From an uncultured Eubacteriales bacterium (GTDB taxonomy: Bacteria; Bacillota; Clostridia; Lachnospirales; CAZQDT01), in contig CAZQDT010000001.1 in assembly GCA_964592005.1 (NCBI GenBank), positions 602 to 64,601 of the forward strand: DNA of 64,000 nucleotides. Direction: 5' to 3'. The notes beneath the pieces are model-generated. The model had not been told where the DNA came from. It searched no databases and was given only the letters and a program-made list of their open reading frames with translations. The position numbers and the translations under genes are program-made. Positions 6,974-50,038 of the stretch are shown one piece after another. Each line of letters opens with the position of its first letter. Position 1 is the stretch's first letter.

Positions 6974-8734
6974 ATGTTAAAATTACTAAAAAAGCTTACA
7001 AAGCGTGATTGGTGCTATGTGGCTGTTAGCATTGCATTTATTGTTGTACAGGTATGGCTTGATATGACAATGCCTGATTATATGAGTAAAATTACGGTGC
7101 TTGTAGAAACAAAAGGTAGTGTTATGTCAGATATATGGAATGCAGGCTGTATGATGTTACTTTGTGCGTTGGGTAGTCTTGTTGCATCAATAATTACAGC
7201 AATTTTTACAGCAAGAATTGGTAGTAATCTGGCGGCTTCACTCAGGGAGGCTATGTTTAAAAAAGTACAAACTTTTTCAATGGAGGAAATTGGAAAATTT
7301 TCGACTGCAAGCCTTATTACACGTTCTACTAATGATATTCAGCAAGTGCTGATGTTTATTGTAATGGGTTTACAGATGCTTGTTAAAGCTCCTATTACTG
7401 CAATTTGGGCTATTTTTAAAATTGCAGATAAGGAATGGCAATGGACAATATCAGTAGCTGTGGCTGTTGTTATTTTGCTTGTTGTTATTAGCATTTGTAT
7501 TACACTTACCATGCCGAAATTTCGTAAAATGCAGAAATTAACGGATGATTTAAACCGTGTGACACGTGAAAACTTAAATGGTTTGCGAGTAGTTAGGGCT
7601 TACAATGCAGAAAGTTATCAGGAGGAAAAATTTGAAGGTGCAAATGATGCACTTACAAGAACACAGTTATTTACGCAAAGAACTATGGCTTTTATGATGC
7701 CATCAATGCAGTTAGTAATGAGTGGTCTTTCTCTTTCAGTTTATTGGATTGGGGCATATTTGTTAAGTAACGTTGTTACTACTGATGAAAGAATTTCTAT
7801 GTTTGGGGATATGATGGTATTTACCCAATATGGTATGATGGTTGTTTCTTCATTTATGATGTTAGTTATGATTTTTATGATGTTGCCAAGGGCTTCTGTT
7901 TCTGCAAAACGTGTAAATGAGGTGCTTGATACGGTTCCAACCATTCATAATGGTACAGTTACTAAAGGAAAAAGTGGAATAACTGGAGAAATTGAGTTTA
8001 AAAAGGTATCTTTTAGATATCCTGATGCTGATGAAGATATTCTTCATGATATTTCATTTACTGTTAAGAAAGGTGAAACTGTTGCCTTTATCGGTTCTAC
8101 TGGTTGCGGTAAGAGTACAGTTGTTAATCTTATTCCACGTTTTTACGATGTGAGTGAAGGAGAAGTTTTAGTTGATGGAGTTAATGTCTGTGAATATGAT
8201 GAGTGTGCACTTCGTAACAAGATTGCTTATGTTTCACAAAAAGCAATCCTATTTTCGGGAACGATTCGTTCTAATATTGCTTATGGTGAAAACGGTGGAA
8301 ATTTAATTACTGAAGAAGATATTGCAAATGCAATAGATACTTCTCAAGCAAAAGAATTTGTAGATAGTCTTGACTATTCTTATGATGCTTATGTAGCACA
8401 AGGGGGAACAAATTTCTCAGGTGGACAAAAGCAGAGATTGTCAATAGCTCGTGCGATTGCAAGAAAGGCGGAAATTATAATTTTTGATGATTCATTTTCT
8501 GCTCTTGACTATAAAACTGATCGTGCACTTAGAAAAAGGCTTGATGAAAAATGTAGCGATATAACAAGAATTGTTGTTGCACAGCGTATTGGCACTATTC
8601 GTGATGCAGATAAAATTATAGTTTTGGAAGATGGAAAAATTGTTGGTATGGGTAAGCATAATGAATTGATGGAAAATTGTGAGGTTTACCAGCAAATTGC
8701 TTTTTCACAACTTTCAAAGGAGGAATTAGAGTAA
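6974..8734 (+). CDS. ABC exporter permease/ATPase, subunit 1 of a heterodimer (degenerate Walker B half)
   Basis: 586 aa: 6-TM exporter domain plus NBD. Walker A GSTGCGKST and signature FSGGQKQR. Walker B is IIIFDDS, with Asp where the catalytic Glu is expected. Confidence 0.9.
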   Translation: MLKLLKKLTKRDWCYVAVSIAFIVVQVWLDMTMPDYMSKITVLVETKGSVMSDIWNAGCMMLLCALGSLVASIITAIFTARIGSNLAASLREAMFKKVQTFSMEEIGKFSTASLITRSTNDIQQVLMFIVMGLQMLVKAPITAIWAIFKIADKEWQWTISVAVAVVILLVVISICITLTMPKFRKMQKLTDDLNRVTRENLNGLRVVRAYNAESYQEEKFEGANDALTRTQLFTQRTMAFMMPSMQLVMSGLSLSVYWIGAYLLSNVVTTDERISMFGDMMVFTQYGMMVVSSFMMLVMIFMMLPRASVSAKRVNEVLDTVPTIHNGTVTKGKSGITGEIEFKKVSFRYPDADEDILHDISFTVKKGETVAFIGSTGCGKSTVVNLIPRFYDVSEGEVLVDGVNVCEYDECALRNKIAYVSQKAILFSGTIRSNIAYGENGGNLITEEDIANAIDTSQAKEFVDSLDYSYDAYVAQGGTNFSGGQKQRLSIARAIARKAEIIIFDDSFSALDYKTDRALRKRLDEKCSDITRIVVAQRIGTIRDADKIIVLEDGKIVGMGKHNELMENCEVYQQIAFSQLSKEELE

Positions 8735-10584
8735 TGGAAAAGAAAGAATATGAATTCGGCCAAGCAACTCAAAAACCGATGCGACGTGGTCCAGGAGGTC
8801 CGGGAGGACGAATGGGTAATGGTGAAAAAGCCAAGGATTTAGTTGGTACTTGGAAAAAGTTATTGGGTTATTGCAAAAAATATAGTATTGCATTTATAAT
8901 AGCTATCATATGTGCGATTATAGGTACAGTATTACAATTGTTAGGACCTGATAAGCTTTCGGATATTGCAAAATATATTGAAGAAGGTTTGTTTACAGGT
9001 AATATTGACCTTGATGCTATTTTTGATGTAGGCATTATACTTATTTGTTTTTATGCTGCAAGCTGGATACTTGCGACAACTCAACATTGGATTATGGCAA
9101 CTGTTACGCAGCGAGTATCTAAAACGATGCGTTGTGATATTTCTGAAAAAATTAATCGTTTGCCAATGTGGTACTATAATAGCCATTCAACTGGTGATGT
9201 ACTGTCACGTGTAACAAACGATGTGGATACAATTGGTCAGTCTTTAAACCAAAGTATTGGTAATTTGATTTCACAAATTGTTTTATTTGTTGGAAGTCTA
9301 TTTATGATGTTTATTACAAACTGGGTTATGGCATTTACGGCGGTATTATCAACTCTTATTGGTTTTGTATTTATGATGGTTGTTATGAGTAAAAGCCAGA
9401 AGTATTTTATGCAGCAACAGCGAAATTTAGGTGCTTTAAATGGACATATTGAGGAAATTTATGCAGGTCATACAGTTGTTAAGGCTTATAATGGTGAAGA
9501 ACAGGAAAATAAAAAATTTGATGAATTAAATGCAAAGCTTAGAGATAGCGGATTTAAAGCACATTGCCTTTCCGGACTTATGCAACCATTTATGGCTTTT
9601 ATTGGCAATTTTGCTTATGTGGCAGTTTGTATTGTTGGTGGTGCTTTAGCACTGAATGGTAATATTGATTTTTCAGTTATTGTAGCATTTGTTATGTATG
9701 TACGTTATTTTACACAGCCACTTTCTCAGATTGCACAATCAATGCAAACGTTACAGTCAGCCGCTGCTGCTGGAGAAAGAGTTTTTGAATTCCTTGAAGC
9801 TGAAGAAATGGAAGACGAAAGCCAAAAGACAAAGCGTCTTGAAAATGTAAAAGGTGCTGTTGAATTTAAACATGTTAAATTTGGATACGAAGATTCTGAT
9901 AAGACTATAATCCATGATTTTTCAGCAATAGCGAAGCCGGGACAAAAGATTGCGATTGTTGGTCCTACGGGAGCAGGAAAGACAACTATGGTTAATCTTC
10001 TTATGCGTTTTCATGAAATACAAAGTGGCGAAATTTGTATTGATGGAATATCTACAAAAGATGTTAAACGTGAGGATGTTCATGAACAATTCTGTATGGT
10101 TTTACAGGATACATGGTTATTTGAAGGGACTATTCGTGAAAATCTTGTATATTCGACATCTAATGTATCGGATGAAAAAATTAAAGAAGCATGTAAGGCA
10201 GTTGGTTTGCATCACTTTATAAAAACACTTCCGCAAGGATATGATACAGTTTTATCGGACCAAGTTAATCTTTCGCAGGGGCAAAAACAACAGCTTACGA
10301 TTGCTCGTGCTATGATTGCAGATAAGCCAATGCTAATTTTGGATGAAGCGACATCGTCAGTAGACACCCGTACTGAGTTGCAAATTCAAGATGCTATGGA
10401 TAAGCTTATGCACGGAAGAACTTCGTTTGTTATTGCACATCGTCTTTCTACGATTAAAAATTCTGACCTCATTCTTGTAATGAAAGATGGTGATATTATA
10501 GAAAGTGGTAATCATGAAGAATTGCTTAAAAAAGGTGGATTTTATGCAGAACTTTATAATAGTCAATTTGAACAGGTATCATAA
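8734..10584 (+). CDS. ABC exporter permease/ATPase, subunit 2 of a heterodimer
   Basis: 616 aa. The start overlaps the upstream stop (TAATG). Walker A GPTGAGKTT, variant signature LSQGQKQQ, Walker B LILDEATS with a consensus Glu. The N-terminal tail is Gly/Pro/Arg-rich (RRGPGGPGGRMG). Confidence 0.9.
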   Translation: MEKKEYEFGQATQKPMRRGPGGPGGRMGNGEKAKDLVGTWKKLLGYCKKYSIAFIIAIICAIIGTVLQLLGPDKLSDIAKYIEEGLFTGNIDLDAIFDVGIILICFYAASWILATTQHWIMATVTQRVSKTMRCDISEKINRLPMWYYNSHSTGDVLSRVTNDVDTIGQSLNQSIGNLISQIVLFVGSLFMMFITNWVMAFTAVLSTLIGFVFMMVVMSKSQKYFMQQQRNLGALNGHIEEIYAGHTVVKAYNGEEQENKKFDELNAKLRDSGFKAHCLSGLMQPFMAFIGNFAYVAVCIVGGALALNGNIDFSVIVAFVMYVRYFTQPLSQIAQSMQTLQSAAAAGERVFEFLEAEEMEDESQKTKRLENVKGAVEFKHVKFGYEDSDKTIIHDFSAIAKPGQKIAIVGPTGAGKTTMVNLLMRFHEIQSGEICIDGISTKDVKREDVHEQFCMVLQDTWLFEGTIRENLVYSTSNVSDEKIKEACKAVGLHHFIKTLPQGYDTVLSDQVNLSQGQKQQLTIARAMIADKPMLILDEATSSVDTRTELQIQDAMDKLMHGRTSFVIAHRLSTIKNSDLILVMKDGDIIESGNHEELLKKGGFYAELYNSQFEQVS

Positions 10585-10954
10585 GATGTAAAAATAATAC
10601 AGAGATTATATAAAAATTGGTGTGGTTAAAAATCAAATGTCATTAAGTTTACAGTGTTGACAGCTGCAAACCCCAAAAGAGGTAGAAAGTTTTAATCTTT
10701 TTGCCTCTTTTCTTTGTTTTTGAGCAACACAAATAGACAGATTTTCATCTGTCAAAAAAATAATTATTCAAATATGTAAATTTATGACATTGGGTTAAAA
10801 ATCACACTAATTTTTTTAAAATAAAGATGATTGTTTAAATAAAGTTAAATTAGTAATATATTAAAAACTAAAGAAAAAATATTAAAAAAAGGACAAGAAA
10901 AATATCAAATTAGCAAAATAAAGCAATAAATAGGTAAAAAATGATAAAAAATGC

Positions 10955-10985
10955 TTGAAAACTGGGGGGGGGGGGGTGGTATAAT
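10955..10985 (+). promoter_or_regulatory. chemoreceptor promoter with a poly-G spacer
   Basis: TTGAAA (10955-10960), then a 19-nt spacer ACT-G13-TGG, then TATAAT (10980-10985) preceded by TG at 10977-10978 (extended -10). It sits 51 nt upstream of the MCP ATG. Confidence 0.55.
10964..10976 (+). repeat. G13 homopolymer
   Basis: Thirteen consecutive G were counted directly (7 in block 10961-10970 and 6 in block 10971-10980). It is the only long G/C homopolymer seen in the window. Confidence 0.95.
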
Positions 10986-11035
10986 AAAACGATGTATAGT
11001 TTTGCAGTAAAATTATTGAAAGGGGTAAAACACAA

Positions 11036-12751
11036 ATGAATTTGGAAAGCCGATTGAAAAATTTAAAAGTGGCAGAGAAATTGAAAGTTTATCGAATTAG
11101 TACTATTGTATTAATTTTAGGTATGGGAATTGTATCAGCAGTATTGAGTTTTGTGATGTATTTAAATATTAAAAACATTACAGAAGTATGGTCGCCTTCC
11201 TTAGCATATGTACAGGAATGGGATACACTTGCTTCTGATTATCGTTTGAAACAGTACGGACATTTGGTGGCTGCTGATGAAGAAACTATGAAATCATATG
11301 AGCAAGAGATGGCAGTCGTAGAAAAGAATATGGAAGAAGTACGTGCAGAGTTTAAAAATTTAATTTCTACGGAAGTAGAACAAAAAGAATATAATAATAT
11401 AATTGAAAAATGGGAAGAGTATGTAAAACAGTCAGAAAAAATACTTGAACTTAGTCGTGCAGGTAAACCTGAAGAAGGCGGACTGTTGATGGTGGGTGAA
11501 ATTTATGATACATATAAAGATTTTTGTAAAAGTTTTGATGAACTTGAAAATTATGAGAATAATGAATTATCAAAAGCTAAAACTATAATAAAAGTGGTAT
11601 TTATTATAATGATTATAATTATTGCTATTGTAGTAATTTTTGCTGTTTTTGCAGCGACTTCTATTGGTAAAGTGATTGGAAAGATGATTACAGAGCCGGT
11701 AGCACAGATAGAAAAAGCAATAGTTGCCATGAGAGATGGAGATTTTTCTAAAGAAAACTTACTTACTTATGAATCAGAAGATGAGCTTGGTGTAGTAGAA
11801 AAGAAATTGAAAGAAGCTTTGATAAATTTAACTAACTATGTAAAAGAAATTTCAGATGAATTGAAAAAAATTGCAAAAGGTGATTTGACTAGAAATGGTG
11901 AGGATATCACAGACTTTTTAGGAGAGTTTTCTAGTATAAAGGAATCACTTATGTATATTTTGAAAAAACTTAATGTTGCACTTAATCAAATTCAGGATTC
12001 TTCAGTTCAGGTTGCAAATGAATCAGAAGAAATTTCAAAGGCATCACAATCACTTGCAGAGATAGCAAATGACCAGGCAAGTGCAATTGAAGAATTAACA
12101 GCTACTGTGAATACTGTGGCTAGTTTAGCAACAGAAAGTGCAAAAACATCACAGGAAGCCTATGAAAAGGTTAAAAATTCTACAATCAAAGCTGAAGATG
12201 AAAAGCGTAAAATGGAAGAATTGACAGAGGAAATGAAATATATTACAGAAATTTCCAAGGAAATTGGAAATATTATTACTGCAATAGAAGATATTGCATC
12301 TCAGACAAATTTATTGTCTTTGAATGCGTCTATTGAGTCGGCTAGAGCGGGAGAGGCAGGCAAAGGATTTGCGGTTGTTGCAGACCAGATTGGTAAATTG
12401 GCATTGGATAGTGCACAATCGGCTGTAAATACAAGAAATCTTATAAATAAGACTTTGATAGAGATTGAAAAAGGTAATGCGATTACAATATCTACTTCAG
12501 AATCTTTTGACCAGATTATAGAAGAAATGAAATCTTTTGCAGAAGTAGCAAATCAAACTATGCAAAATGCAAATGCTCAAGCAAGTGCATTGGAACAGAT
12601 AGAAAATGGTATAGAGCATGTTTCGGCATCTATACAAAATACATCTGCATCAGCGGAAGAAAATTTTGCAATAAGTGAAAATTTATCAGATAAATCATTG
12701 CAATTAGATGAATTAGTAAAGAGATTTGATTTATTTGAAAATAAAAAATAA
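11036..12751 (+). CDS. methyl-accepting chemotaxis protein
   Basis: 571 aa. An N-terminal TM, a helical sensor domain and a second TM are followed by a HAMP region and a highly conserved signalling hairpin ([37 protein letters not shown]). Confidence 0.9.
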
Positions 12752-12768
12752 ATGTTTTATTAAAAATG

Positions 12769-12802
12769 AGGTTTACTTTATTGAGTAAGCCTTATTTTTT
12801 TT
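12769..12802 (+). terminator. rho-independent terminator after the MCP gene
   Basis: AGGTTTACT / AGTAAGCCT stem (one G-U pair), 6-nt loop, then TATTTTTTTT. Confidence 0.6.
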
Positions 12803-12911
12803 ATTTTAATATTTCTTTAACATTTCTTAAAAAAATCATAAACAAATAAAAACTATAATTAAAACATAAATTAAATGAATTAAAAATAAATCAAGAAAGG
12901 GAGAAATTAAA

Positions 12912-13121
12912 ATGTCAAAATTAGCAGATACAAATGAAAAAATTGCAGAAGTTGTAGTAGAAGGTTATAAAAAAATTGAAGATGGTTTTGTTGGAGGGTA
13001 CAAGAAAATTGAGAATGGTGCAGTCGAGGGTTTTACAAAAGTAATGGATAAATGTGTAGAAGTATTGTTTGCAAAAGAGGGTGAAACAGTGGAAGAAGCA
13101 AAGAAAAGGCTTTCAAGATAA
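12912..13121 (+). CDS. small soluble protein of unknown function
   Basis: 69 aa with a GGGAG RBS. Contains an internal duplicated motif, EGYKKIEDGFVGGYKKIENGAVEGF. Confidence 0.5.
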   Translation: MSKLADTNEKIAEVVVEGYKKIEDGFVGGYKKIENGAVEGFTKVMDKCVEVLFAKEGETVEEAKKRLSR

Positions 13122-13192
13122 AAGTAATTTTAACAAAACTTAAACATTTTATAAAAAATTATAAATATTAATAAAAAAAGAAAGAGGTAATA

Positions 13193-13564
13193 ATGATGAA
13201 TAAGAATGACCAAGAATTTTTAGTACAAAAAATCCGTACACAGTATACAGAAAAGGAGTATACACAGCTTGATGAACTGAAAGCATTAGATGCCAAAGTA
13301 AAAAATCCGGCAAATGCTTTTGCATACATATTTGGAAGTTTGGGAGCAATTATTATGGGAGCTGGAATGAGCCTTGTAATGACAGATATAGGTTCAAGTA
13401 TTGGTATTGAAAATGCAATGACACCGGGTATTATTATAGGAGTTATAGGAATGCTTATCGCAATTATCAACTATCCAGTTTATAAAAATATCCTTAATTC
13501 ACGTAGAAAAAAATATGCAGACCAAGTTATGAAACTTAGTGATAAGATTATGAGTAATAAATAA
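13193..13564 (+). CDS. small two-TM membrane protein, paralog of 16424..16801
   Basis: 123 aa with an AGAGG RBS. Shares KIR.QY, LD..V, G.GMS..M and PGII.GVIG....I..YPVY blocks with the 125-aa ORF at 16424. Confidence 0.55.
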   Translation: MMNKNDQEFLVQKIRTQYTEKEYTQLDELKALDAKVKNPANAFAYIFGSLGAIIMGAGMSLVMTDIGSSIGIENAMTPGIIIGVIGMLIAIINYPVYKNILNSRRKKYADQVMKLSDKIMSNK

Positions 13565-13609
13565 TTATTTTTGTAAGAAGATAACTAGAATATTTTATTA
13601 TTAATGAAA

Positions 13610-13646
13610 AAAGTGGAGTATATGAAAAATATAACTCCACTTTTTA
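13610..13646 (+). terminator. rho-independent terminator
   Basis: 10-bp stem AAAGTGGAGT / ACTCCACTTT, 14-nt loop, T-run. Confidence 0.6.
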
Positions 13647-13773
13647 CAGTTTTTTATAAAAAATATAAAATAGAAACAAAACTTTAACATTTCTATTGTA
13701 TAATTATTAAAGGAAACAAAATTTCTGCTAAAGTCGCAAAAGTTTTTAAAAATAATATATGGGAGATATGGAA

Positions 13774-14445
13774 ATGTTTAAGATATTAGTGGTGGAAGAT
13801 GAAAAAGAAATGAATAAAACTGTATGCTCGTTTTTAAATCAAAGTGGTTATGAAGCTATTGGTTGTTTAAATGCGACAGATGCCTATGATGTACTTACTG
13901 ATAATGTTATTGATTTAATTGTTTCAGATATTATGATGCCAAATATAGATGGTTTTGAATTTGCAAGTAATGTACGTGAATTGAATGAGAATATACCTAT
14001 CCTTTTTATGACTGCACGTGATGATATTGCATCTAAACAAAGAGGTTTTCGTATCGGTGTAGATGATTATATGGTAAAGCCGATAGACTTAGATGAATTA
14101 TTTTTGCGAATAGGTGCACTTCTTCGCAGGGCAAAGATTGCGGCAAATCGAAAACTGGAAATTGGTAAATTTGTAATGGATGCTGATGAACATACAGCAT
14201 ATTTTGAAGGAGAAGAAATATCAATGACTAATAGAGAATTTAGTATTCTTTATAAATTATTATCTTATCCTAAAAAAACTTTTACAAGAACACAGCTTAT
14301 GGATGAATTTTGGGATGCCGATACAGAAACTGCACCGAGAGCGGTAGATGTCTATATGACAAAACTCAGAGGAAAACTTTCAAAATGTAATGATTTTGAA
14401 ATTGTGACAGTCCATGGATTGGGATATAAGGTGGTGCTGAAGTGA
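13774..14445 (+). CDS. OmpR/PhoB-family response regulator
   Basis: Receiver domain (MFKILVVEDE...DLIVSDIMMP...MVKP) plus a winged-helix output domain (REFSILYKLL...VDVYMTKLRGKL...VHGLGYK). The ATG at 13774 is preferred over the track start at 13759. Confidence 0.9.
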   Translation: MFKILVVEDEKEMNKTVCSFLNQSGYEAIGCLNATDAYDVLTDNVIDLIVSDIMMPNIDGFEFASNVRELNENIPILFMTARDDIASKQRGFRIGVDDYMVKPIDLDELFLRIGALLRRAKIAANRKLEIGKFVMDADEHTAYFEGEEISMTNREFSILYKLLSYPKKTFTRTQLMDEFWDADTETAPRAVDVYMTKLRGKLSKCNDFEIVTVHGLGYKVVLK

Positions 14446-15515
14446 AAAAAGCAGATTTTTGGAGTAAAATCTTAAAGGCTATTTATAGATGTTTACTGTT
14501 TTTTCTTTTGGTTGCATTTCTTGTTACAAGTTCAACTATGTTATTTGTTTCTGTATTATCGGAAAGTTTGGAATTACAACTTACTGAAGCTAATATGAAT
14601 ATGGCTGCAAAGTTGACATTTGGAAATGTTATATTTTTAAGTATTTTATTTACTGTAATTGATGCTGTACGCAGAAAATTTACGACTGAAAAAGCTACAA
14701 AACATATAGCGAAAGCAGCAAAGAAAGTAGTTGAAGGGGATTTTAGCGTAAGAATTTCACCTATGAACAGATTGGGAACAGATGAAAATTTTAATGAAAT
14801 TATTAAATGTTTTAATACTATGACAGAAGAACTTGCAGGTGTTGAAACGCTTCGTACGGATTTCATTGCAAATGTATCGCATGAGATGAAAACACCTCTT
14901 GCTGTTATGCAGAATTACGGAACACTGTTACAGACTCCTAATCTAGCTGAAGAAAAAAGAATTGAGTATGCAAAAGGAATTACAGAAAGTTCACATCGTT
15001 TGGCTGATATGATGACTAATATTTTAAAGCTTAATCGTCTTGAAAAACAGCAGATTTATCCTAAAAGAGAAGAATATGATTTAGGTGAGCAGCTTTGTGC
15101 CTGCCTTTTAAATTATGAAACTGTATGGGAAAAGAAAAATATAGAAATTGAGGTAGAAATGGCAGAAAATGTAAAAGTGAATGCGGATAGTGAACTTTTA
15201 TCACTTGTCTGGAATAATCTTTTTTCAAATGCTTTTAAATTTACTCCTGATGGTGGTAAAGTATCAGTTTCTCTTGAAGATGTGAATGATTGTGCAGTGG
15301 TTAAAGTCGGGGATTCTGGCTGTGGTATGACATCTGAAGTAGGAGCACATATTTTTGAGAAATTTTATCAGGGAGATACATCTCATGCAACACAAGGAAA
15401 TGGTTTGGGACTTGCCTTAGTTAAACGTGTGGTAGACATTTTGCAGGGTGAAATAAGTGTAGAAAGTGAACTTGGAAAAGGTAGTGTTTTTACGGTAAAA
15501 TTTTGGAGGATTTAA
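14442..15515 (+). CDS. sensor histidine kinase, intramembrane-sensing type
   Basis: 357 aa. The GTG start overlaps the RR stop (GTGA). Two TM helices are separated by only about 20 aa. HAMP region, H-box SHEMKTPLA, and N/G boxes (WNNLFSNAFKFT, DSGCGM, GNGLGLALV). Confidence 0.9.
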   Translation: MKKADFWSKILKAIYRCLLFFLLVAFLVTSSTMLFVSVLSESLELQLTEANMNMAAKLTFGNVIFLSILFTVIDAVRRKFTTEKATKHIAKAAKKVVEGDFSVRISPMNRLGTDENFNEIIKCFNTMTEELAGVETLRTDFIANVSHEMKTPLAVMQNYGTLLQTPNLAEEKRIEYAKGITESSHRLADMMTNILKLNRLEKQQIYPKREEYDLGEQLCACLLNYETVWEKKNIEIEVEMAENVKVNADSELLSLVWNNLFSNAFKFTPDGGKVSVSLEDVNDCAVVKVGDSGCGMTSEVGAHIFEKFYQGDTSHATQGNGLGLALVKRVVDILQGEISVESELGKGSVFTVKFWRI

Positions 15516-17139: not shown

Positions 17140-17994
17140 ATGAAAGAAATAATAAAATTAAAAAATGATTTAATGTTTAAAATAATGTTTATGAAAGAGG
17201 AAAATAGAGATATATTGCAGGATTTTATAGCATCGGTGTTGAATATTCCATATGAAAGCATAAAAAATATTTCGATAAAAAATTCAGAATTGTTGCCGGA
17301 TATGGTAGTAAATAAATTTAGCAGACTGGATATAAATCTTGAATTAAATAATGAAAAACTTATAAATATAGAAATGCAGGTGCGAAGTCAGGATTATTTC
17401 AATGACAGAACATTGTTTTATCTTGCTAAATTGTATACTTCAAAATTAAAAAAAGGGGAAGAATATGATAGACTGCAACAGAGTATTTCGATAAATATAG
17501 TGGCATTTGATATATTTGAATGCGAAGAGTATCATTCGGAATTTTTGATGATGGAAAAGAACAGACATGAAGTATTTACGGACAAATTTTGTATACATTT
17601 TTTAGAATTAAATAAAATAAACAACAAGACTGGTGAAGATAACCATTTAGAATTGTGGTTAAAATTGATAAATGCTGAAAGCGAGGAGGAATTGAAGATG
17701 ATAGAGCAGGCGGATGTTCCGATGTTGTTAAAAGCGGTGAATGTAGTGAAACAGATGAGCGAAGACGAAAGATTGAAAGAAATTGAGAGAATGAGAGATA
17801 AGGCATTGCACGATGAAGCGAGTGAATTGGGAAGTGCGAGAAGAAAAGGAATGAGTGAAGGGATAAGTATAGGAATAAGTAAGGGCAAAATTGAAGGAAG
17901 AAATGAGGGAATAAGCAAATTTATGGAAACAATGAGAAAATTGGGATATGCAGAAGAAGAAATAAAGAAGATATTGATGAATATTTCTGATTGA
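17140..17994 (+). CDS. Rpn/YhgA-like PD-(D/E)xK recombination-promoting nuclease (putative transposase family)
   Basis: 284 aa with a GGAG RBS. N-terminal family core: KNDLMFKIMF, FSRLDINLEL, INIEMQV, FYLAKLY. C-terminal Gly-spaced repeats (GMSEGISIGISKGKIEGRNEGI) and an LGY..EEI tail. Confidence 0.8.
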   Translation: MKEIIKLKNDLMFKIMFMKEENRDILQDFIASVLNIPYESIKNISIKNSELLPDMVVNKFSRLDINLELNNEKLINIEMQVRSQDYFNDRTLFYLAKLYTSKLKKGEEYDRLQQSISINIVAFDIFECEEYHSEFLMMEKNRHEVFTDKFCIHFLELNKINNKTGEDNHLELWLKLINAESEEELKMIEQADVPMLLKAVNVVKQMSEDERLKEIERMRDKALHDEASELGSARRKGMSEGISIGISKGKIEGRNEGISKFMETMRKLGYAEEEIKKILMNISD

Positions 17995-18692: not shown

Positions 18693-21600
18693 ATGAAAAG
18701 TGTTCAGATTAAGAACAGAGTAATTGCGATTCTGCTCTCATTTGCTATGGTATTGGGAATTATGCCGGTGAATGTGGTATGGGCAGATGAAACAGTGAGT
18801 AAGTACATATTTAATCACGATGGAGAAACAGCAAAAGAAGTTATTGATGAGTTAAAAGATTGTTTTAATTTAGTAACTAATTATGGGAAAACAGGTGCTT
18901 TACAATTTAAAGCTAAAGACGGAAGTGTTGACGTAAAGGATTTAGGAATAAGTTCGGGTATTGCTGTATTTGAAATTGAATTTTGTCCAGCTGGTAAAAC
19001 TGTACAGACAGCATTGTTTAAAAACAGTAAAGATGAAACTTTATTTGCAATAAGTTATGTATATCCTCAAAAAGGGACAACGGGATTATATTTAGCTAGT
19101 GCGGCAAGTAAAACAGAAGTAAAATTGCAAGATGCTAAAAGTAATATGTGGTCAAGGGTAAAGGTTGAAATTGACTTAGAAACTTCTAAAAAATTAGGAG
19201 TATTACAATATAGAATAAGTTCAGCATACTATAATACAAAATCAAGTTATAGTGAAGATTATTCGACTTGGACTAAAAATTCTGATGTAACACAAGATAA
19301 AGTGGTAGCATTAGGGAATGATAATGGTACATTTACTAGTGCAATAGATGGAACAACAGACCATCCTTTTGATTTAGGTAAGATAACTCTTTCTTCTTCA
19401 ACAAATACTCGTTGGCTTGGAGATATCAGTCTTTATAACGTTACCTCCATTGACTGGGCAACAGCTCCTACTACACAGTATGTAGGAACTTCCACAATAG
19501 TTCCTAATGGCAATGAGGAATTAAAGCTTACATATTCAACAGGAGCTACTGAAACTGTAAAATTATCAGATTTATCAGCAGATGATTATACAGTAGATTT
19601 TGATAACAGTAAAGTAGCAGCTTCTGTACCTCTTACTCTTACATATAAGGGATTAAAAACACCAGCAGTAAATGTTGAAGTAAAAGAAGCAGATGTAACA
19701 GCTATGGAAATAGTGGATAAAGCTAATGCACAAAAAATATATTATGTAGGAAAGCCATTCCAAGATGATTTAATGCTTAAATTAACCTGTAAAGCTGTAG
19801 ATGTAACATTTAATACAACAGTAAGTTTGGCAGAAAAAATAAAAGAAGGTACTGCTTCAGTTGATTTTACTTCAGCTGAACCAACAGGAGAAGAAGGTAA
19901 AACTGTTACAGTAACATATGGTAGTTTTAAAGATACAATAGAAAATGTAGTAGTTAAGACACCTACTGTTAAAGAATTTAAAGTTATACCTAATAAAACA
20001 CATTATACTATTGGTGAAAAGTTAGATTTAACAGTAAAATTGGTTTATGATAGTGGAGATGAGGAAATTCTTGAAGAGGGTACAGGATATACTGTATCAG
20101 AATTTGATAATACAAAACCGGGCATTGTATTACCAACAATATATTCTCTTAAAGGTGATAATAATGTAACTCTTTCATTGGTAATTATGATATCTGGAGA
20201 TAAAGCTTCGTTTGAGTATGTTGATGGAACAACAACAGATATAACTGGTTTTACCATTGATAGTACAACCCAAAAAACAAATAGCAGTAATAAGCTTAAA
20301 GTAGAAACAGCAGTAAGTGATAAGACTTGTAATATCAAAAAAGAAATAGGTACATTGGAAAGTGGTAAGGTAGTAATAAACACAGAGATGTATGTAGCAA
20401 AAGGTAAAGCTGCATTTTATAAAATACTCGATAAAGATGGAAATGCACTTATAAATTTTGGAAACTGGTCTAAATTTAACTTATATGAGGGAGAGGTTTC
20501 AGGAGGTTCTCCAAGTTTAGATGTAAGCAATGAAACAGAAACAAGAGGTAAATATTGGCTTAGAGTTAAAACAGTAATAGATTTGGACAAATCTAATGTT
20601 GATGGAATATTAAATTTTAAAGCAAATATATATTACTATAATGGAGCTTGGATTTTCTTAAAGACTGTAACTCAAGATGACTATATAGGAAGTACATTTG
20701 AGAATGCAAATGGCTGTGCGACAGACTCTCTTAAAAGCTTCAGTATAGGTTCTTTAGCATTTGGAGGAGATTCGACAGATACATATTTTGACAATATCGA
20801 AGTATATACAATACCATTAAAATCTTTTGCAATTAATACATTTCCAAAACAAACATATATGGTAAATGAAAAAACATTAGACCTTACAGGTATTGTAATT
20901 GATGAGGAGTATGAATATATAGATAATGAGCAGATATCAGATGTTGATTTGATTAAACAGAAATATGATATATCAGGCTTTGATACTTCGACAGTAGGAA
21001 CAAAAACGATAGTTATAAAAAGTAAAGCGGATAATACTAAACAGACGAGTTACGATATAAACGTAACAGAGGCAACGTTGACTGATATTTCCGTTACTAC
21101 AAAACCTGACAAGGTAGATTATTTTGTAGGGGAAACATTTGATAAGACAGGAATAGTGGTAAAGGGAACTTACTCAGACAAGACTACAAGGCCTTTATCA
21201 GAAAGTGAATATGAAATAGGAACGGTAGATTTATCATCAAAAGGAACAAAGACGATTACTGTTACAGCAGTAGCAAAGAATGAAAAGGGTGAAGATGTTA
21301 CAACTACTTTTGATGTGGAAGCAATTTCCATAGAAAGTATTGAAGTGACAACACTTCCTACAAAATCAGAGTATTATGTAGGAGAAACACTTAATACCAA
21401 TGGAATGGTTGTTAAAGCTACACCAAGTAAAGGTGAAGTGTTTGAAATGGCTGTTTCAGATTATGAAGTGGAAACAGTTGAATTATCAGAAGCAGGTACA
21501 AAGCCTGTTAAAGTAAAAGCAATAGCTAAGGTAGAAAGCGGAAAAACAGTAGAAACGACATTCAATATAACTGTAAAAGAACCAGAACTTGTAAGTATTA

Positions 21601-24443
21601 AAGCAACAGCTTCTAAGACAACTTACAAAATAGGAGATACTTTTGATAAATCAAAAGTTGAAGTAAAAGCTACTTATAGTAATGAAACAACAAAAACTAT
21701 TGCAGCAGATGATTTTGAAGTATCAGGATTTGACAGTACAAAAGTGGCAGAATCTCAAGAAATAACAGTTACTTATAAAGGAAAAACGGATAAATTTACA
21801 ATTAAAATAATAGAGGCTTCAGCTATAAAAAATCAGTCATTCTACTATATTGACCAAGAAACAACAGATGAAACAGTATTTACAGGAAATGCAGATGGAG
21901 TATTTGCAATAGCAACAGGTGAAAAAGGTGGAAATACAACACCTAAGATTTCTGTTAAGAATGGTATAGTTTCTAAGACTTTTGATTCACCTATTACAAG
22001 TGGAACAGTTACATTTGAAACAGTAACTTATCATAATTCTGCTATATTTGCTACAAGAATAGTAGATAGTGAAGGAAAAGGCTTGATAAATTATTCACAA
22101 CAGACAAGTGGTAATCTTAATCTTTATGAAGGTGTTGCAACCACAGGTTCAGTAAAATATATGAATTTAGCATCAAAAGATAAAGTTAAAAATAAATGGG
22201 TTAAAACAGTTACAGAAATAGATTTAGATGCTTCAAATACAAAAGGTATTTTACAATTTACACTTGATGTATATTATAAATCAGCTTATACAGATGAAGA
22301 GTGGACAAAATTGGGAACATTTACACAAAATGACACATATGTATCTTCAAGTTTTGGATTTGCAAATGGTGCGGCTGATAGTACAATTACCACATTTGAT
22401 ATAGGTGGAATTGCATTCGAGTCAGCAGGTACATCTTATGCAGATGATGTTTTATTTAATGATGGAAATGGTATTGAAGGTATTGTTACAGTAACTTCTA
22501 AAGAACTTACAAAAGTAGAAGTTACAAGCGAGCCAACTATTAAAGAGTTCCAGCAGGGAGCTAAATTAAATACAACAGGTTTAGTGCTTACAGGTACATA
22601 TTTATGGACTTATTCAGATGGAAGTACAACAGAAAAGACAAAAGAAGTAACAATATTTAAAACAGATTATGATTTTAGTAAAGTTGCAAATGATGTTCCT
22701 GTAACAATTACGGTTGAAGCAGGCACAGATGGGTTGAAAAAAGCATTTACATATATTTACAAAGTAAATGTAATTGAAAAAGCAGACAGTTCCTTTATAA
22801 CATTTGAATATACAGATGATGATAATGTAGGAATTGTAGGATTTGACGGAAGTAAAGTAAGTGTTACACGTACTGATATATCAGGTAATGAAAGTAATAA
22901 AATTACAGTAGCAAAAGGTACTACAACAAAGACTTTAGATGAAACAGCTACGACAGGTATAGTACATTTTGAAACAGATTTCCTTACAACTGCTACAAGT
23001 AAAGCGTCACTTTTCCTTAGAATACTTAATAGTGAAGGCTTACCTATGGTAGATATAGGACAATATGGAAGTTCAAATTTAAATCTTTATTTAGATAAAG
23101 CTACAAGTGGAACAACAGCAGGACAATTTAAAGGTCTTACAGTTAATAAATGGGCTAAAGTAGCAATGGATATAGATTTAAATGCTTCAGCAACAGCAGG
23201 ACATCTTGTTTTTGATGCAGAAGTTTGGACAACAGATGATTATGAAGCGGGCAACTGGAAAGAATTTGCTAAATTTGATGAAACATTGTATCTTAATAGT
23301 ACAACAGCAGCAAGTGCAACAGGAGCAGCTTCGACAAAAGCAACAGTATTTGATGTGGCAGCAGTAGAAATCCAAAATGCAGGAAGTGCAACAATTTACT
23401 TTGATGATATGTATTTTGAAGCTGTTCAAGATGGAGCAACAAAGACATTTACAAATTTGGAATTAACATCAGCACCTTCTAAGAAAGAATATTTTGTAGG
23501 TGACACACTTAATACAAATGGGCTTGTACTTACAGGCACATATGTAATTAAGACAGCAAACGGAAAAGAATATACAAGAACAGCAAGAGTTTTACAATAT
23601 GATGTTGATTTTAACAGCCAGCAAGAGGCAGAAGAAACAACAGTAACAATTTCCGTAGGCGGTAAGAGTGTAGCATTTACAGTTGTTGTAAAAGCTAATG
23701 CAGCACTTGATGGTATAGAACAATATTTGGTAGATTATGTGAATAACAAATTGGTAAAATTACAAGATGATAATTCGATATACTTGAACAAGAGAAATAT
23801 ATTACTTCCATCAGACAGAGGCGATTTTGTGACATTGACATGGAGTATAGATTCTGATATAGCAAGTATCAATGAAAGAGTGCTTACAGTAGTTCCTTCT
23901 ATAAAAGAAGAACTTACAGCAGACCTTGTGGTAGAAATGTATACAAAGAATGAGTCGGGGGATAAAGTTTTAGTTAAGAAAACTATTAAATTGGTAATTC
24001 CTCAGGCTTCTTCAAAAGATACACCTACTACTGACCTTTTGACAGATGAAGCTTTAAAGGAAGCTATTGAATATATGGTAGAAAGAGGTTTGTTTGATAA
24101 TCAGGGTAGCCTTTTAAATTCAGAAGATATTTTGGGACAACTTGACAGAAATGTTCTTGTAGAAGAGATGGTTTCAGTAATAGTGAAGTTATTTGATATT
24201 GATACAACGTATACAGATACAGAAATCAGCAGAGATGATATAAATTATTTCTCATGGTATAAAGATGCTGTTGTAGCAGCTTTCCAGCTTAGTGTTGAAA
24301 CACAGGCAAGTCGTGAAAATAAAGATAATTATGGTATTGGTGATGAAATTACAAAAGCAGATATTGAATATATGCTTTCAAGAATAGTTGCCATAGACCA
24401 AACAACTTTGCCATCAGATTACTTTAGTCAGATGTTTGAGTAA
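18693..24443 (+). CDS. giant secreted/cell-surface protein with Big_3-like Ig repeats and four copies of an unassigned ~210-aa module
   Basis: 1916 aa with an AAGGAGG RBS and the signal peptide MKSVQIKNRVIAILLSFAMVLGIMPVNVVWA. Many Y(F/Y)VG(E/D)T(F/L)(D/N)..G..V..TY units resemble bacterial Ig-like group 3 domains. The C-terminal ~120 aa are weakly SLH-like. Confidence 0.85.
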   Translation: MKSVQIKNRVIAILLSFAMVLGIMPVNVVWADETVSKYIFNHDGETAKEVIDELKDCFNLVTNYGKTGALQFKAKDGSVDVKDLGISSGIAVFEIEFCPAGKTVQTALFKNSKDETLFAISYVYPQKGTTGLYLASAASKTEVKLQDAKSNMWSRVKVEIDLETSKKLGVLQYRISSAYYNTKSSYSEDYSTWTKNSDVTQDKVVALGNDNGTFTSAIDGTTDHPFDLGKITLSSSTNTRWLGDISLYNVTSIDWATAPTTQYVGTSTIVPNGNEELKLTYSTGATETVKLSDLSADDYTVDFDNSKVAASVPLTLTYKGLKTPAVNVEVKEADVTAMEIVDKANAQKIYYVGKPFQDDLMLKLTCKAVDVTFNTTVSLAEKIKEGTASVDFTSAEPTGEEGKTVTVTYGSFKDTIENVVVKTPTVKEFKVIPNKTHYTIGEKLDLTVKLVYDSGDEEILEEGTGYTVSEFDNTKPGIVLPTIYSLKGDNNVTLSLVIMISGDKASFEYVDGTTTDITGFTIDSTTQKTNSSNKLKVETAVSDKTCNIKKEIGTLESGKVVINTEMYVAKGKAAFYKILDKDGNALINFGNWSKFNLYEGEVSGGSPSLDVSNETETRGKYWLRVKTVIDLDKSNVDGILNFKANIYYYNGAWIFLKTVTQDDYIGSTFENANGCATDSLKSFSIGSLAFGGDSTDTYFDNIEVYTIPLKSFAINTFPKQTYMVNEKTLDLTGIVIDEEYEYIDNEQISDVDLIKQKYDISGFDTSTVGTKTIVIKSKADNTKQTSYDINVTEATLTDISVTTKPDKVDYFVGETFDKTGIVVKGTYSDKTTRPLSESEYEIGTVDLSSKGTKTITVTAVAKNEKGEDVTTTFDVEAISIESIEVTTLPTKSEYYVGETLNTNGMVVKATPSKGEVFEMAVSDYEVETVELSEAGTKPVKVKAIAKVESGKTVETTFNITVKEPELVSIKATASKTTYKIGDTFDKSKVEVKATYSNETTKTIAADDFEVSGFDSTKVAESQEITVTYKGKTDKFTIKIIEASAIKNQSFYYIDQETTDETVFTGNADGVFAIATGEKGGNTTPKISVKNGIVSKTFDSPITSGTVTFETVTYHNSAIFATRIVDSEGKGLINYSQQTSGNLNLYEGVATTGSVKYMNLASKDKVKNKWVKTVTEIDLDASNTKGILQFTLDVYYKSAYTDEEWTKLGTFTQNDTYVSSSFGFANGAADSTITTFDIGGIAFESAGTSYADDVLFNDGNGIEGIVTVTSKELTKVEVTSEPTIKEFQQGAKLNTTGLVLTGTYLWTYSDGSTTEKTKEVTIFKTDYDFSKVANDVPVTITVEAGTDGLKKAFTYIYKVNVIEKADSSFITFEYTDDDNVGIVGFDGSKVSVTRTDISGNESNKITVAKGTTTKTLDETATTGIVHFETDFLTTATSKASLFLRILNSEGLPMVDIGQYGSSNLNLYLDKATSGTTAGQFKGLTVNKWAKVAMDIDLNASATAGHLVFDAEVWTTDDYEAGNWKEFAKFDETLYLNSTTAASATGAASTKATVFDVAAVEIQNAGSATIYFDDMYFEAVQDGATKTFTNLELTSAPSKKEYFVGDTLNTNGLVLTGTYVIKTANGKEYTRTARVLQYDVDFNSQQEAEETTVTISVGGKSVAFTVVVKANAALDGIEQYLVDYVNNKLVKLQDDNSIYLNKRNILLPSDRGDFVTLTWSIDSDIASINERVLTVVPSIKEELTADLVVEMYTKNESGDKVLVKKTIKLVIPQASSKDTPTTDLLTDEALKEAIEYMVERGLFDNQGSLLNSEDILGQLDRNVLVEEMVSVIVKLFDIDTTYTDTEISRDDINYFSWYKDAVVAAFQLSVETQASRENKDNYGIGDEITKADIEYMLSRIVAIDQTTLPSDYFSQMFE

Positions 24444-24451
24444 TAAATTTA

Positions 24452-24475
24452 CCACTGTGGCTTTGTCCACAGTGG
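24452..24475 (+). other. GC-rich intercistronic hairpin
   Basis: CCACTGTGG / CCACAGTGG perfect 9-bp stem with a 6-nt loop and no T-run. It lies between the giant protein gene and the pectate lyase gene. Confidence 0.45.
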
Positions 24476-24487
24476 AACTTAAAAGAA

Positions 24488-27400
24488 ATGAAAGGAGTGT
24501 TTCTCTTGAAAGATAAAAGATTTATGGCGGCTTTACTTGCAGGAACTATGGTATTATCCAATGGTGCAGTAGTTAATGCCGATATGAAATATGAAGCAGG
24601 ACTTCCAGCACAAAGTGACTCGTCAACCCAGTTGGTAGATGTTCTTGAGCCGCTTTCAGATATTCCTGCTTTCCCGGGAGCTGATGGATATGCTAAATAT
24701 GTTACAGGTGGACGTGGAGGAAAAATTATTCATGTAACTAATTTGAATGCTTCAGGAGAAGGTTCGTTGACTGCGGCATTAGAAAATGGTGGTAAAACAA
24801 GCGAGCCTAGAATTATTGTATTTGATGTGTCGGGTACTATTGTTATAGGAAAAGAATTATATAAGAAAAGCTATTCAAATGTTACTATTGCAGGTCAAAC
24901 AGCACCGGGCGAAGGTATTACAATAACAAATGAAAACTTTTATTTAGCACATTCTGATAATGTTATTATAAGATTTATTAAATTTAGGCATGGTCAGGCG
25001 ACAGCAAAAGATGACTCTTTCTATGTACAAAACAGTACAAATATTATGATTGACCATTGTTCATTTGAATATGGTAGTGATGAATCCTGTTCTGCAAGAG
25101 AGAATTCTAATCTTACTTTCCAGTGGTCAATATTGACTAATGGCGTAAGAACTCACTCAATGGGTGGTTTACAGGAATGGAATTCAGAAACAATTCACCA
25201 TTGTTTAATGGGTAACCAGAATGACCGTAACCCTAAAGCCAAAGGTATTATGGATTTTACAAATAATGTAGTTTATAACTGGGGTGATTATCCTTTTGTT
25301 GCAGGTGGTAACTCAGGTGGTCAAGGCTGGGGTAATGTTGTAAATAACTACTTTATAGCTGGTTCAGATACAAAAGACCCAAATCATGCTATTACAAGAA
25401 GTAATGGTAAATATTTCTTGCATTTGGCAGGAAATTTAATTGATTCAAATAAGAATGGTAAATTAGATGGTGTAAATACAGGTATTGATATGATTGCAAC
25501 CTATAATGATGCTAAATATCCTGATAGATTTACATTCCCTGATGATTATACCCTTCCATTGGTGTTGATTAAAAATCGTATGGCTATGGCTGAATTGGAT
25601 TATGTTGACAGTGCAGAAGATGCCTACTATAAAGTAATGGATTTTGCGGGAGATTCAGTATATTATAATACAGATGGTACAACAAAATTATTCCATGATG
25701 ATATAGATACGGAAATTTTATCAGGTGTTCAAAATCAGACTGGAAAACTTCTTCTTCATAATAAAGAAAGTCATAATGAAAAAGGAGAAATCTTTGACCA
25801 AAACTTTATAAATAATCGTCCTCAAATAAATGTAAATGACCCATCTTCAGAGTGGTATCGTCCTGATACTGACCAAGATGGTATGCCAGATGCTTGGGAA
25901 TTGGCTAATGGATTAGACCCTAATAATGCGGAAGACAGAAATAATAAAAATGATGCAGGATATACAATGATAGAAGTATATTTGAATGAATTGGCAGAAC
26001 CGGCATTCCCTGACAATACATATTCTACTGAAGATAAAAAAATAGCAGAAATTATGAAACCTGGTAGAAAAAATGTTCTTGTTTTAGAAAAACAAGGGAA
26101 AGAATATTACTATGATGTTATTAATGGTAAAAATCAGTTAATGATTCCATTAGCACCAGTGGCTGAATATTTAGGATATAAAATGATTAATGTAGCAGAA
26201 GATACAGTAACTATGAGATATCCAGAAGAATTTCCATTAGGTGGTCTTAACTGTGAAGGTAATAATGATGTTATTACGTTTTCGGCAGGAGATGTTAAAT
26301 TCAATGAAACTCTTGTAACTTATGAAGGAAAGTTGTATATGCCTATCAATTATGTATCCTATGGTATGGTAGGTGTTTATGACCAAGTATTGGTAAGTAA
26401 AGAGGATAATATAGTTAATATTTATATAAAAGATGCAGAATTTTATAAAGATTGGCATAAAAATGATGCAAGACAAGAACGTTTAAAATCTGCACCATCT
26501 ATGCTGGCAGAATTTGTAGAAAATAAAACAGAAGATAATACAGAAGTTAAACAACTTAAGATTACTTTTGATAAAGAAGCAGCTTTGGCAGATAATACAA
26601 CAGCAACAATAAGTATTACAAAGAAGACACCATCTTTGACAGTATCAGAAAGTGTATATAATAATGTCTATTCAACATCTACATTTACTGCAAATATAAG
26701 TGATGTGGATATTTGGGGTTCAAATAAGGTTGCGGTTATTAATTTTGAGAATTTTAGAAGTGTTAAAGGAAAATCTTTAAGTGATGATTTTGATGAAACA
26801 GCAACTTATACTGTAAAAATAGATGCAGGTGCTTTTGCTGATTATTACAATGATTATTATGGAACAGATTATGTTACAGATGAAAAAGAATTTGAAATAA
26901 GTTCTATAACAAAAACAACGAATAATCCATCGAACAAAGAGGTTAATGGAGAAACAGAAAATGAATATTTTGTGCAGGAAGATACTTCAACAGTGACAGT
27001 TAAAGAACTTATGCAGGCAGTTTATAAATTGCTTGCTATGAAAGAAGTAAATGCTTCTAACTATGACCAGATTAATGATGGAACAGTAATAGAACCAGAT
27101 GATGCCAATAAAGATGATGACGGAAAAGATGATGACAATAAAGATGATGACGGAAAAGATGATGACGGAAAAGATGATGACAATAAAGATGATGACGGAA
27201 AAGATGATGACGGAAAAGATAATGACGGAAAAGACGATGACGGAAAAGATGATGACAACAATGACGATGACTACGATAGTGATGATGAAACAGAGCCAGA
27301 AGAGCCACAATTACCTACAATGATTGGTAAGGAGACAGTGGAAGAAGCAGGGAATGTTTCTGGAACAGATTCTAAAGAAATTGAAATTATTGTAGATGAA

Positions 27401-49197: not shown

Positions 49198-49800
49198 ATG
49201 GACTTTAATACAAGTGAAACAAGATTAAATCTTATGAGAGCTTTTGCAGGGGAAAGTCAAGCGAGAAACAGATATACAATTGCAGCTGAACAGGCTAAAA
49301 GTCAAAAATTATATATAGTTTCATATTTGTTTCAATATACTGCTGACCAAGAAAAAACACATGCTAAAGTTTTTTATGAATTTCTTAAAGATTTAGCAGG
49401 TACTACAATAAAAATTGATGGCGGTTATCCAGTAGACATTAATCCAGATATTTCCAAACTTTTGCGTATGGCACAGCATAATGAATTTGAAGAAAATGAC
49501 GATGTATATCCTGCCTTTGCAGAAATTGCCAGAAAAGAAGGGTTTGATATCATTGCCAATAAATTTACAGCTATTGCCAAAATAGAAAAAATACATGGCG
49601 AACGTTTTGGTAAATTTGCAGAACTTATTGAGCAAGATAAACTTTTTGATTCAGGTGATAATGAAACAGAGTGGATTTGTCTTAAATGTGGTCATGTCCA
49701 TAAAGGTCCTAAAGCACCTAAAACTTGTCCAATATGTGGATATGAACAAGGACATTATATAAGAAAAGATATGGCACCATTTTTTATCTGTCAAAAATAA
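49198..49800 (+). CDS. rbr: rubrerythrin
   Basis: 200 aa. Ferritin-like diiron domain (LMRAFAGESQARNRY, EKTHAKVF) plus C-terminal rubredoxin-like CLKCG...CPICG. Confidence 0.85.
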   Translation: MDFNTSETRLNLMRAFAGESQARNRYTIAAEQAKSQKLYIVSYLFQYTADQEKTHAKVFYEFLKDLAGTTIKIDGGYPVDINPDISKLLRMAQHNEFEENDDVYPAFAEIARKEGFDIIANKFTAIAKIEKIHGERFGKFAELIEQDKLFDSGDNETEWICLKCGHVHKGPKAPKTCPICGYEQGHYIRKDMAPFFICQK

Positions 49801-49803
49801 AAA

Positions 49804-49849
49804 AATAACAGATGCTGTTTTGATTAATTTCAAAGCAGCATTTGTTATT
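49804..49849. terminator. bidirectional terminator
   Basis: About 20-bp stem (49804-49823 with 49830-49849, two wobble/mismatch positions), with an A-run before and a T-run after. Confidence 0.65.
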
Positions 49850-49856
49850 TTATATT

Positions 49857-49916
49857 GGGGGAGAAAGTTAGAGAAAGAAAAAAAGGGGGGAGAAAAATAA
49901 AACCTTTCTCTAACTT
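49857..49916. other. G-run direct repeat plus 13-bp hairpin, unknown function
   Basis: GGGGGAGAAA occurs at 49857-49866 and 49886-49895. The perfect stem AAGTTAGAGAAAG (49865-49877) / CTTTCTCTAACTT (49904-49916) encloses the second G-run. Confidence 0.5.
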
Positions 49917-50038
49917 GGATTGTTTATATCTTACCATGGACTTGTGAATAAAGTTTATATAAGATGTGAACATTTTGTAAATAAATTTTATTTTTAAATG
50001 TAAATAACCCCCGCTAATAATAACGGAGGTTTAAAATA

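Follow-up and report, generated by a model that had tools for sequence, protein, structure and literature searches.

Promoter repeats and chemoreceptor genes

To our knowledge, work on contingency loci based on simple-sequence repeats has dealt almost exclusively with host-adapted pathogens (Neisseria, Haemophilus, Helicobacter, Campylobacter, Treponema and Mycoplasma), mostly at genes for surface antigens, and phase variation in Clostridia has mainly been described through invertible DNA switches. In Mycoplasma hyorhinis, poly-A tracts located in the promoter spacers of the vlp genes switch transcription by changing the distance from the -35 to the -10 box. TA repeats in the promoter spacer of hifA/hifB alter the same distance in Haemophilus influenzae (cited in PMC2791445). 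Unstable promoter homopolymers are also present at porA, fetA and opc of Neisseria meningitidis, the poly-G tract of porA lying between -35 and -10: length changes of the porA type, around a 17-nt optimum, result in high, intermediate or no transcription (PMC2791445; PMC7864442). The tp0126 gene of Treponema pallidum, which encodes an OmpW homologue, likewise has a poly-G tract between its -35 and -10 boxes and is optimally transcribed at 17 nt, and tprL of the same organism displays 7–11 G within isolates (PMC7864442). As regards chemoreceptors, the tlpB gene of Helicobacter pylori is associated with a variable G-repeat (6–16 G, 12 G in strain 26695) that sets the receptor level gradually (PMC8295292), and a C9 tract at the 5' end of an MCP gene figures in a list of candidate phase-variable genes of Helicobacter bizzozeronii (PMC3234257).

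The locus described here is a G13 homopolymer lying upstream of a gene for a methyl-accepting chemotaxis protein (MCP), in a stretch of DNA of 64,000 nucleotides that we call the window. Like the porA, fetA and opc tracts, it is a homopolymer placed between a -35 and a -10 box. These genes, however, encode outer-membrane antigens that are under immune selection in Gram-negative pathogens, and the variation and its effects on expression have been demonstrated experimentally, whereas the G13 locus belongs to a Lachnospiraceae-like Firmicute, precedes a gene for a cytoplasmic-membrane chemoreceptor, has an extended -10 and is known here from sequence alone. T. pallidum, a spirochaete, differs in that its genome is dotted with many tracts of this kind, at genes for outer-membrane proteins; here there is one in 64 kb, at a chemoreceptor gene. 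The vlp and hifA/hifB repeats are poly-A or TA dinucleotides and control surface lipoproteins or fimbriae. With tlpB the locus shares a G-repeat just upstream of a chemotaxis-receptor gene, but the tlpB repeat is part of the transcribed 5'UTR, where it is engaged in antisense pairing with the C/U-rich loop of RepG; by contrast, the G13 tract is enclosed by the promoter boxes and precedes the predicted transcription start, and a search of the window revealed no C/U-rich partner. The H. bizzozeronii tract, for its part, is a genomic prediction in an Epsilonproteobacterium with about 80 simple-sequence repeats, and no promoter-spacer position is stated for it.

Full-text literature searches turned up no promoter switch based on simple-sequence repeats for Clostridium, Clostridia or Lachnospiraceae, and the only repeat-linked chemoreceptor genes found were those of Helicobacter. 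An earlier note on this DNA had put forward control of a chemotaxis receptor by promoter-tract length as undescribed in clostridia-type bacteria. The taxonomic part of this claim agrees with our searches, but for chemoreceptors as such it has precedents in tlpB (PMC8295292) and in the H. bizzozeronii C9 tract (PMC3234257). By analogy with the systems above, the mechanism would be a familiar one, in an unfamiliar taxon and gene class. If real, it would be the first promoter switch based on a simple-sequence repeat that we could find for Clostridia. After tlpB/RepG, it would also add a second way, with a different mechanism, of controlling a chemoreceptor through a G-repeat; spacer switching would then extend to an abundant group of anaerobes and to a behavioural trait, the chemoreceptor repertoire.

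The G13 tract and the predicted promoter around it

The MCP gene and its upstream region comprise the following features, where L004 designates a contig from a second lineage (see below):

10675..10711, + strand: terminator-like hairpin with a 15-pair stem and a T-rich tail, after the upstream ABC-transporter genes
10935..10954, + strand: two phased A6 tracts (TAAAAAATGATAAAAAATGC), a possible UP-like element judging from the sequence, just 5' of the -35 box
10955..10960, + strand: -35 box TTGAAA, a 5/6 match to TTGACA, aligning with TTGAAA, TTGACA or TTGACG in the orthologues
10961..10979, + strand: promoter spacer of 19 nt, made of ACT, G13 and TGG; orthologue spacers are 17–18 nt
10964-10976, + strand: G13 homopolymer as read in the sequence, the putative mutable element; a counterpart of at least 11 G begins L004
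10977..10985, + strand: perfect extended -10, TGgTATAAT (TGG at 10977-10979, TATAAT at 10980-10985), the same in L004
10991..10993, + strand: predicted transcription start, 6–8 nt past the -10 according to standard sigma-70/sigma-A geometry
11020..11025, + strand: ribosome-binding site AAGGGG, 10 nt before the ATG; the orthologues have an AAAGGA-type motif at the same place
11036..12751, + strand: MCP gene (571 aa, ATG at 11036) with 4HB_MCP_1 sensor, HAMP and MCPsignal domains
12762..12799, + strand: terminator-like hairpin with a T run, directly 3' of the MCP gene

The tract is thus flanked by a recognisable -35 box and a recognisable -10 box, 5' of the MCP gene, and its placement by the earlier note, at 10964-10976 between TTGAAA and TGgTATAAT, is correct to the base; the 19-nt spacer that the note had counted is likewise found at 10961-10979. 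There are only 11 perfect copies of TGNTATAAT on the two strands of the window, one of which directly abuts the tract. The -10 box ends 50 nt upstream of the MCP gene, and the 5'UTR counted from the predicted start would be about 44 nt long. The upstream ABC gene ends at 10584. Since terminator-like hairpins stand on both sides of the MCP gene, the gene is expected to form a monocistronic unit needing its own promoter. The note had called the downstream gene a chemoreceptor gene, rightly so: the open reading frame has 4HB_MCP_1, HAMP and MCPsignal domains (PF00015, 1.2e-32; PF12729, 3.1e-16; PF00672, 2.4e-07), and its product is a transmembrane methyl-accepting chemotaxis protein.

The tract is an outlier in its context. 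The window has 31.5% GC overall, and the intergenic stretch around the tract, said by the note to be AT-rich, has 20–22%. G13 is the only run of G or C longer than 6 in the 64 kb, the next longest being two G6 runs, and C runs reach 5 at most, with a single C5; the absence of a comparable tract elsewhere in the window, another point of the note, is thus borne out. Runs of at least 13 G are expected 2e-5 times (independent bases) to 5e-5 times (first-order Markov model) per 64 kb, and the 281 kb of loci that were fetched contain a sole other G/C run of 8 or more, namely the homologous tract in L004. The presence of G13 is therefore far beyond chance. With 13 G in the window and at least 11 G in L004, the homopolymer exceeds in both cases the 8–9 nt or so from which slippage may be considered.

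Conservation of the tract and spacing of the boxes

The species of the window is represented by a single assembly: the exact MCP and six neighbouring proteins are found on one NCBI contig (69,574 bp). The closest MCP (P0002, 85% amino-acid identity) is encoded on the Logan contig L004, from SRR33013276, which is 90.7% identical to the window in DNA across the block that runs from the MCP gene to the two-component-system genes. This contig opens with GGGGGGGGGGG-TGGTATAATAA, 58 nt ahead of the start codon, and the G11 plus TGGTATAATAA at its start match the window at 22 of 22 positions. By contrast with this identity, the rest of the L004 5'UTR has diverged through substitutions and several indels. 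Over its first 600 nt, the MCP gene is only 67–85% identical per 60-nt segment. The tract thus comprises 13 G in the window and, as a lower bound set by the contig end, at least 11 G in L004. As a long pure G run is present at the same site in two independent assemblies of diverged lineages, a poly-G artefact is excluded, and the tract would seem to be an ancestral one that both lineages have retained. As far as the sequences tell, it has remained uninterrupted across about 10% DNA divergence, while G runs otherwise stop at 6.

The strain of L004 recurs, 100% identical, in two further runs (contigs L009 and L010). These two contigs begin inside the MCP gene, without the promoter, and break at arbitrary places. 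The break of L004 inside the tract fits length heterogeneity, but it could just as well stem from low coverage or from read errors at poly-G; in the window, too, the true number of G may differ from the assembled 13 by one or more. Should the proposed switch be real, metagenome contigs of Clostridia that break at promoter homopolymers might reveal more loci. We used the upstream ABC transporter to look for the -35 side of the promoter in the L004 strain, but its closest homologues (L044-L047, 87–88% identity) are not syntenic and have no MCP gene downstream. The N-terminal 160 residues of the MCP, used as a query for contig-end fragments, retrieved three distant proteins only, and an MCP scan of genome contigs gave only distant MCPs, with 28–51% identity.

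The upstream regions of more distant MCP orthologues (68–70% identity) were fetched from five lineages. A G tract is present in none of them, and their promoter elements, found 38–95 nt 5' of the start codon, read as follows:

L005-L007: -35 TTGAAA, spacer of 18 nt, -10 TGaTATATT
L008: -35 TTGACA, spacer of 18 nt, -10 TATAAT without the TG
L048: -35 TTGACA, spacer of 18 nt, -10 TGtTAAAAT
L049: -35 TTGACG, spacer of 17 nt, -10 TGgTAAAAT
L050-L059: -35 TTGACA, spacer of 18 nt, -10 TGcTATATT

The TGn extension of the -10 box is thus found in four of the five lineages. A MAFFT alignment of the upstream regions has 15 invariant columns, including the TG in both the -35 box and the extended -10, together with the A, A and T of the -10 hexamer, and the first T of the -35 box is nearly invariant; TTG and TG-TAnnnT are in this way among the few upstream columns that are invariant or nearly so. 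In the same alignment, the window has one extra spacer column as compared to the orthologues with an 18-nt spacer. The promoter assignment is well supported by this comparison, even though the start itself is a predicted one. Contigs L050-L059 represent one Lachnospiraceae species, in nine metagenome assemblies, where the promoter is invariant and lies about 100 nt upstream of the MCP start. The spacer of this species has GAGGGG where the window has G13, a sequence that may have been the evolutionary seed of the homopolymer. Database entries for the orthologues with 68% identity bear the name MCP [Lachnospiraceae bacterium], and the names attached to the homologues of the neighbouring ABC transporter (76–79% identity) and to the MCP orthologues are 'Lachnospiraceae bacterium' and 'Eubacteriales bacterium'; judging from these relatives, the host organism is Lachnospiraceae-like.

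The preferred distance between the boxes was estimated in three ways, which agree. The orthologue spacers, as listed above, are 17–18 nt long. TTGnnn/TAnnnT pairs are in excess in the window at 17 nt (14, vs 7.8 in shuffles) and at 18 nt (12 vs 7.2), with no excess at 19 nt (9 vs 7.6). Finally, metagenomes were scanned with the pattern GCTTGAAAACT-N8-20-TGGTATAAT; the 33 matches are generic promoters, useful only as a spacing control, and their modal gap, 11, corresponds to a 17-nt spacer. A gap of 13, as in the window, was found once among these 33 instances of GCTTGAAAACT...TGGTATAAT, and none of the 33 promoters has a poly-G. These data are in keeping with the earlier proposal that the loss of one or two G would bring the spacer to an optimum of 18 or 17 nt. 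The tract lengths bracket the 17-nt optimum, G11 giving 17 nt, G12 giving 18 nt and G13 giving 19 nt, and the present 19-nt state would be off-optimum, with 17–18 nt restored by G11–G12. Note that G-rich spacers may adopt a non-B geometry, so that the optimal number of G may not be readable by counting alone.

A candidate spacer switch, its alternatives and neighbouring features

We consider it probable that G13 is a slipped-strand promoter-spacer switch of the MCP gene, of the porA/tp0126 type. The tract would be the central part of the spacer of a sigma-A-type promoter driving a monocistronic MCP gene. Slipped-strand mispairing during replication would add or remove G units, each 1-bp change altering the distance from the -35 to the -10 box and rotating the boxes relative to each other by roughly 35 degrees. 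As RNA polymerase with sigma-A is expected to bind best at 17–18 nt, the population would split into heritable, reversible subpopulations making different amounts of receptor. The output would probably be graded, as in a rheostat, rather than clean ON/OFF, because the perfect extended -10 can partly replace the -35 contact and thereby keep some activity at poor spacings. The same feature provides a counterpoint: it may make the promoter largely insensitive to the -35 spacing.

The phase or rheostat switch had already been suggested in the earlier note. Its structural half, i.e. that the tract is a promoter spacer, is upheld by the tract and -10 of L004, by the layout of the orthologue promoters and by the preference for 17–18 nt; its functional half keeps the probability just given. 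What the sequences show is the anatomy of the promoter, a tract that is not random and is conserved in a second lineage, a conserved promoter architecture and the spacing preference. For a switch, the tract would in addition have to be hypermutable in its host and expression from the predicted start would have to depend on the number of G; variation might then have an adaptive value, for instance through bet-hedging. On this last point we suggest, tentatively and as a possibility short of probable, that the locus is a selected contingency locus in a commensal Lachnospiraceae-like relative of Clostridium: a hypermutable G tract in the promoter spacer, retained by selection in lineages as far apart as species, would make siblings differ in how much of one chemoreceptor they produce, which would amount to a bet-hedging of chemotactic preference and not to immune evasion.

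Of the other explanations, the one that fares best, while still unlikely, is that the tract is real and has no regulatory consequence: it would be a persisting mutational accident, and changes in its length would hardly matter, since the MCP gene would be transcribed from a different promoter or with the extended -10 as the only element needed. Extended -10 promoters can function without -35 contact, and the perfect TGnTATAAT found here could do so. The conservation of the -35 TTG across the orthologues argues, on the contrary, that the -35 contact is in use. Several weak promoter-like sites do exist in the AT-rich upstream region, but these alternatives match at 9/12 only and have no TG. Moreover, neutral long homopolymers should shrink or become interrupted, whereas at least 11 pure G are found in two lineages about 10% apart, next to a UTR that has decayed with indels.

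The most interesting rival places the tract in the 5'UTR of a transcript initiated at a farther promoter, where it would act post-transcriptionally, through pairing with a C/U-rich sRNA as in the RepG model or through a G-rich RNA structure. A chemoreceptor gene, H. pylori tlpB, is controlled in this way through its repeat of 6–16 G (PMC8295292), and weak promoter-like matches are present in the 250-nt AT-rich upstream region. The best -35/extended -10 pair of the region, however, brackets the tract, at the position of the orthologue promoters; the tract would accordingly precede the start and is predicted to be untranscribed. Furthermore, no C/U-rich sRNA complementary to the repeat was found within the 64-kb window, which has no C run longer than 5 and whose single C5 is part of a terminator-like stem, nor were there any Rfam matches or a local structure involving the tract. 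We therefore regard this explanation as improbable.

More improbable still is that the G run acts independently of its length, as the site of a regulator that binds G/C tracts or as a structural element such as a two-layer G-quadruplex. Its position inside the promoter would permit modulation, and 13 G plus TGG could in principle make a weak two-tetrad quadruplex; yet the number of G does not suffice for a three-tetrad quadruplex with G-only loops, the vicinity has no other G-rich element, no similar tract at other promoters of the 64 kb hints at a regulon, and the orthologues function without the tract. Two-colour Illumina chemistry is known to produce spurious poly-G, and the last alternative, a sequencing or assembly artefact of this kind or a chimera joined where a read ended in poly-G, is scarcely credible and can be considered essentially excluded: L004 does end exactly in the tract and the window assembly is the sole one for its species, but the same tract and the same TGGTATAATAA are found at the homologous site in an independent assembly of another lineage, with an MCP 85% identical in protein, and both flanks form one coherent promoter that aligns with the orthologues across the junction.

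Several other readings of the region were tried and rejected. The sole candidate for a small open reading frame across the tract is a low-complexity reverse-strand one of 41 aa. As for RNA families, no Rfam match reached the gathering score, and a permissive scan gave one chance-level match (E = 0.23), outside the tract; the tract region folds no better than shuffles. Sigma-D (flagellar) promoters are used for MCP genes in Bacillus, but inspection by eye revealed nothing that convincingly resembles TAAA-N15-GCCGATAT, whose -35 part would have to be located within the run of G. Reiterative transcription from a start within the tract was also discarded, no acceptable -10 box being visible 5' of the tract on inspection.

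The genes around the tract call for a few observations. The block 11036-15515, which comprises the MCP gene, a 69-aa ORF, a 123-aa ORF, and response regulator and histidine kinase genes, is syntenic only with the strain of L004, L009 and L010; in the three further relatives that were looked at (L044-L047), the ABC pair is not followed by this block, and Pfam gave no match for the 69-aa and 123-aa ORFs. The second gene (8734-10584) of the upstream ABC pair, 6974-10584, has its closest relatives, with 87–88% protein identity, on contigs of 41–54% GC, as compared to 31.5% here, which suggests either that the transporter is unusually conserved across very different genomes or that it has been transferred horizontally. 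The same domain architecture recurs in a second ABC_membrane/ABC_tran pair (616 and 577 aa), at 28668-32251 on the - strand. Between the MCP block and this second pair lie a PD-(D/E)XK_2 transposase-family gene (17140-17994) and two giant putative surface proteins (18693-28219), one of 1916 aa with Big_3 repeats and one of 1243 aa with Cu_amine_oxidN1 domains.

A pair of very strong, adjacent hairpins in an intergenic region further downstream (49801-49930, + strand) has a minimum free energy of -45.5 kcal/mol (z = -8.5 vs shuffles) and no Rfam match. Its first member (49802-49851, + strand) is a perfect stem of 22 bp and may serve as terminator for the gene whose end is at 49800; the other (49865-49916, + strand) has a 13-bp stem and a 26-nt purine-rich loop that holds one of the two G6 runs. 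The only C5 of the window belongs to a nearby hairpin, CCCCCG...CGGAGG (50008-50030), which lies between convergent genes and is probably a bidirectional terminator.
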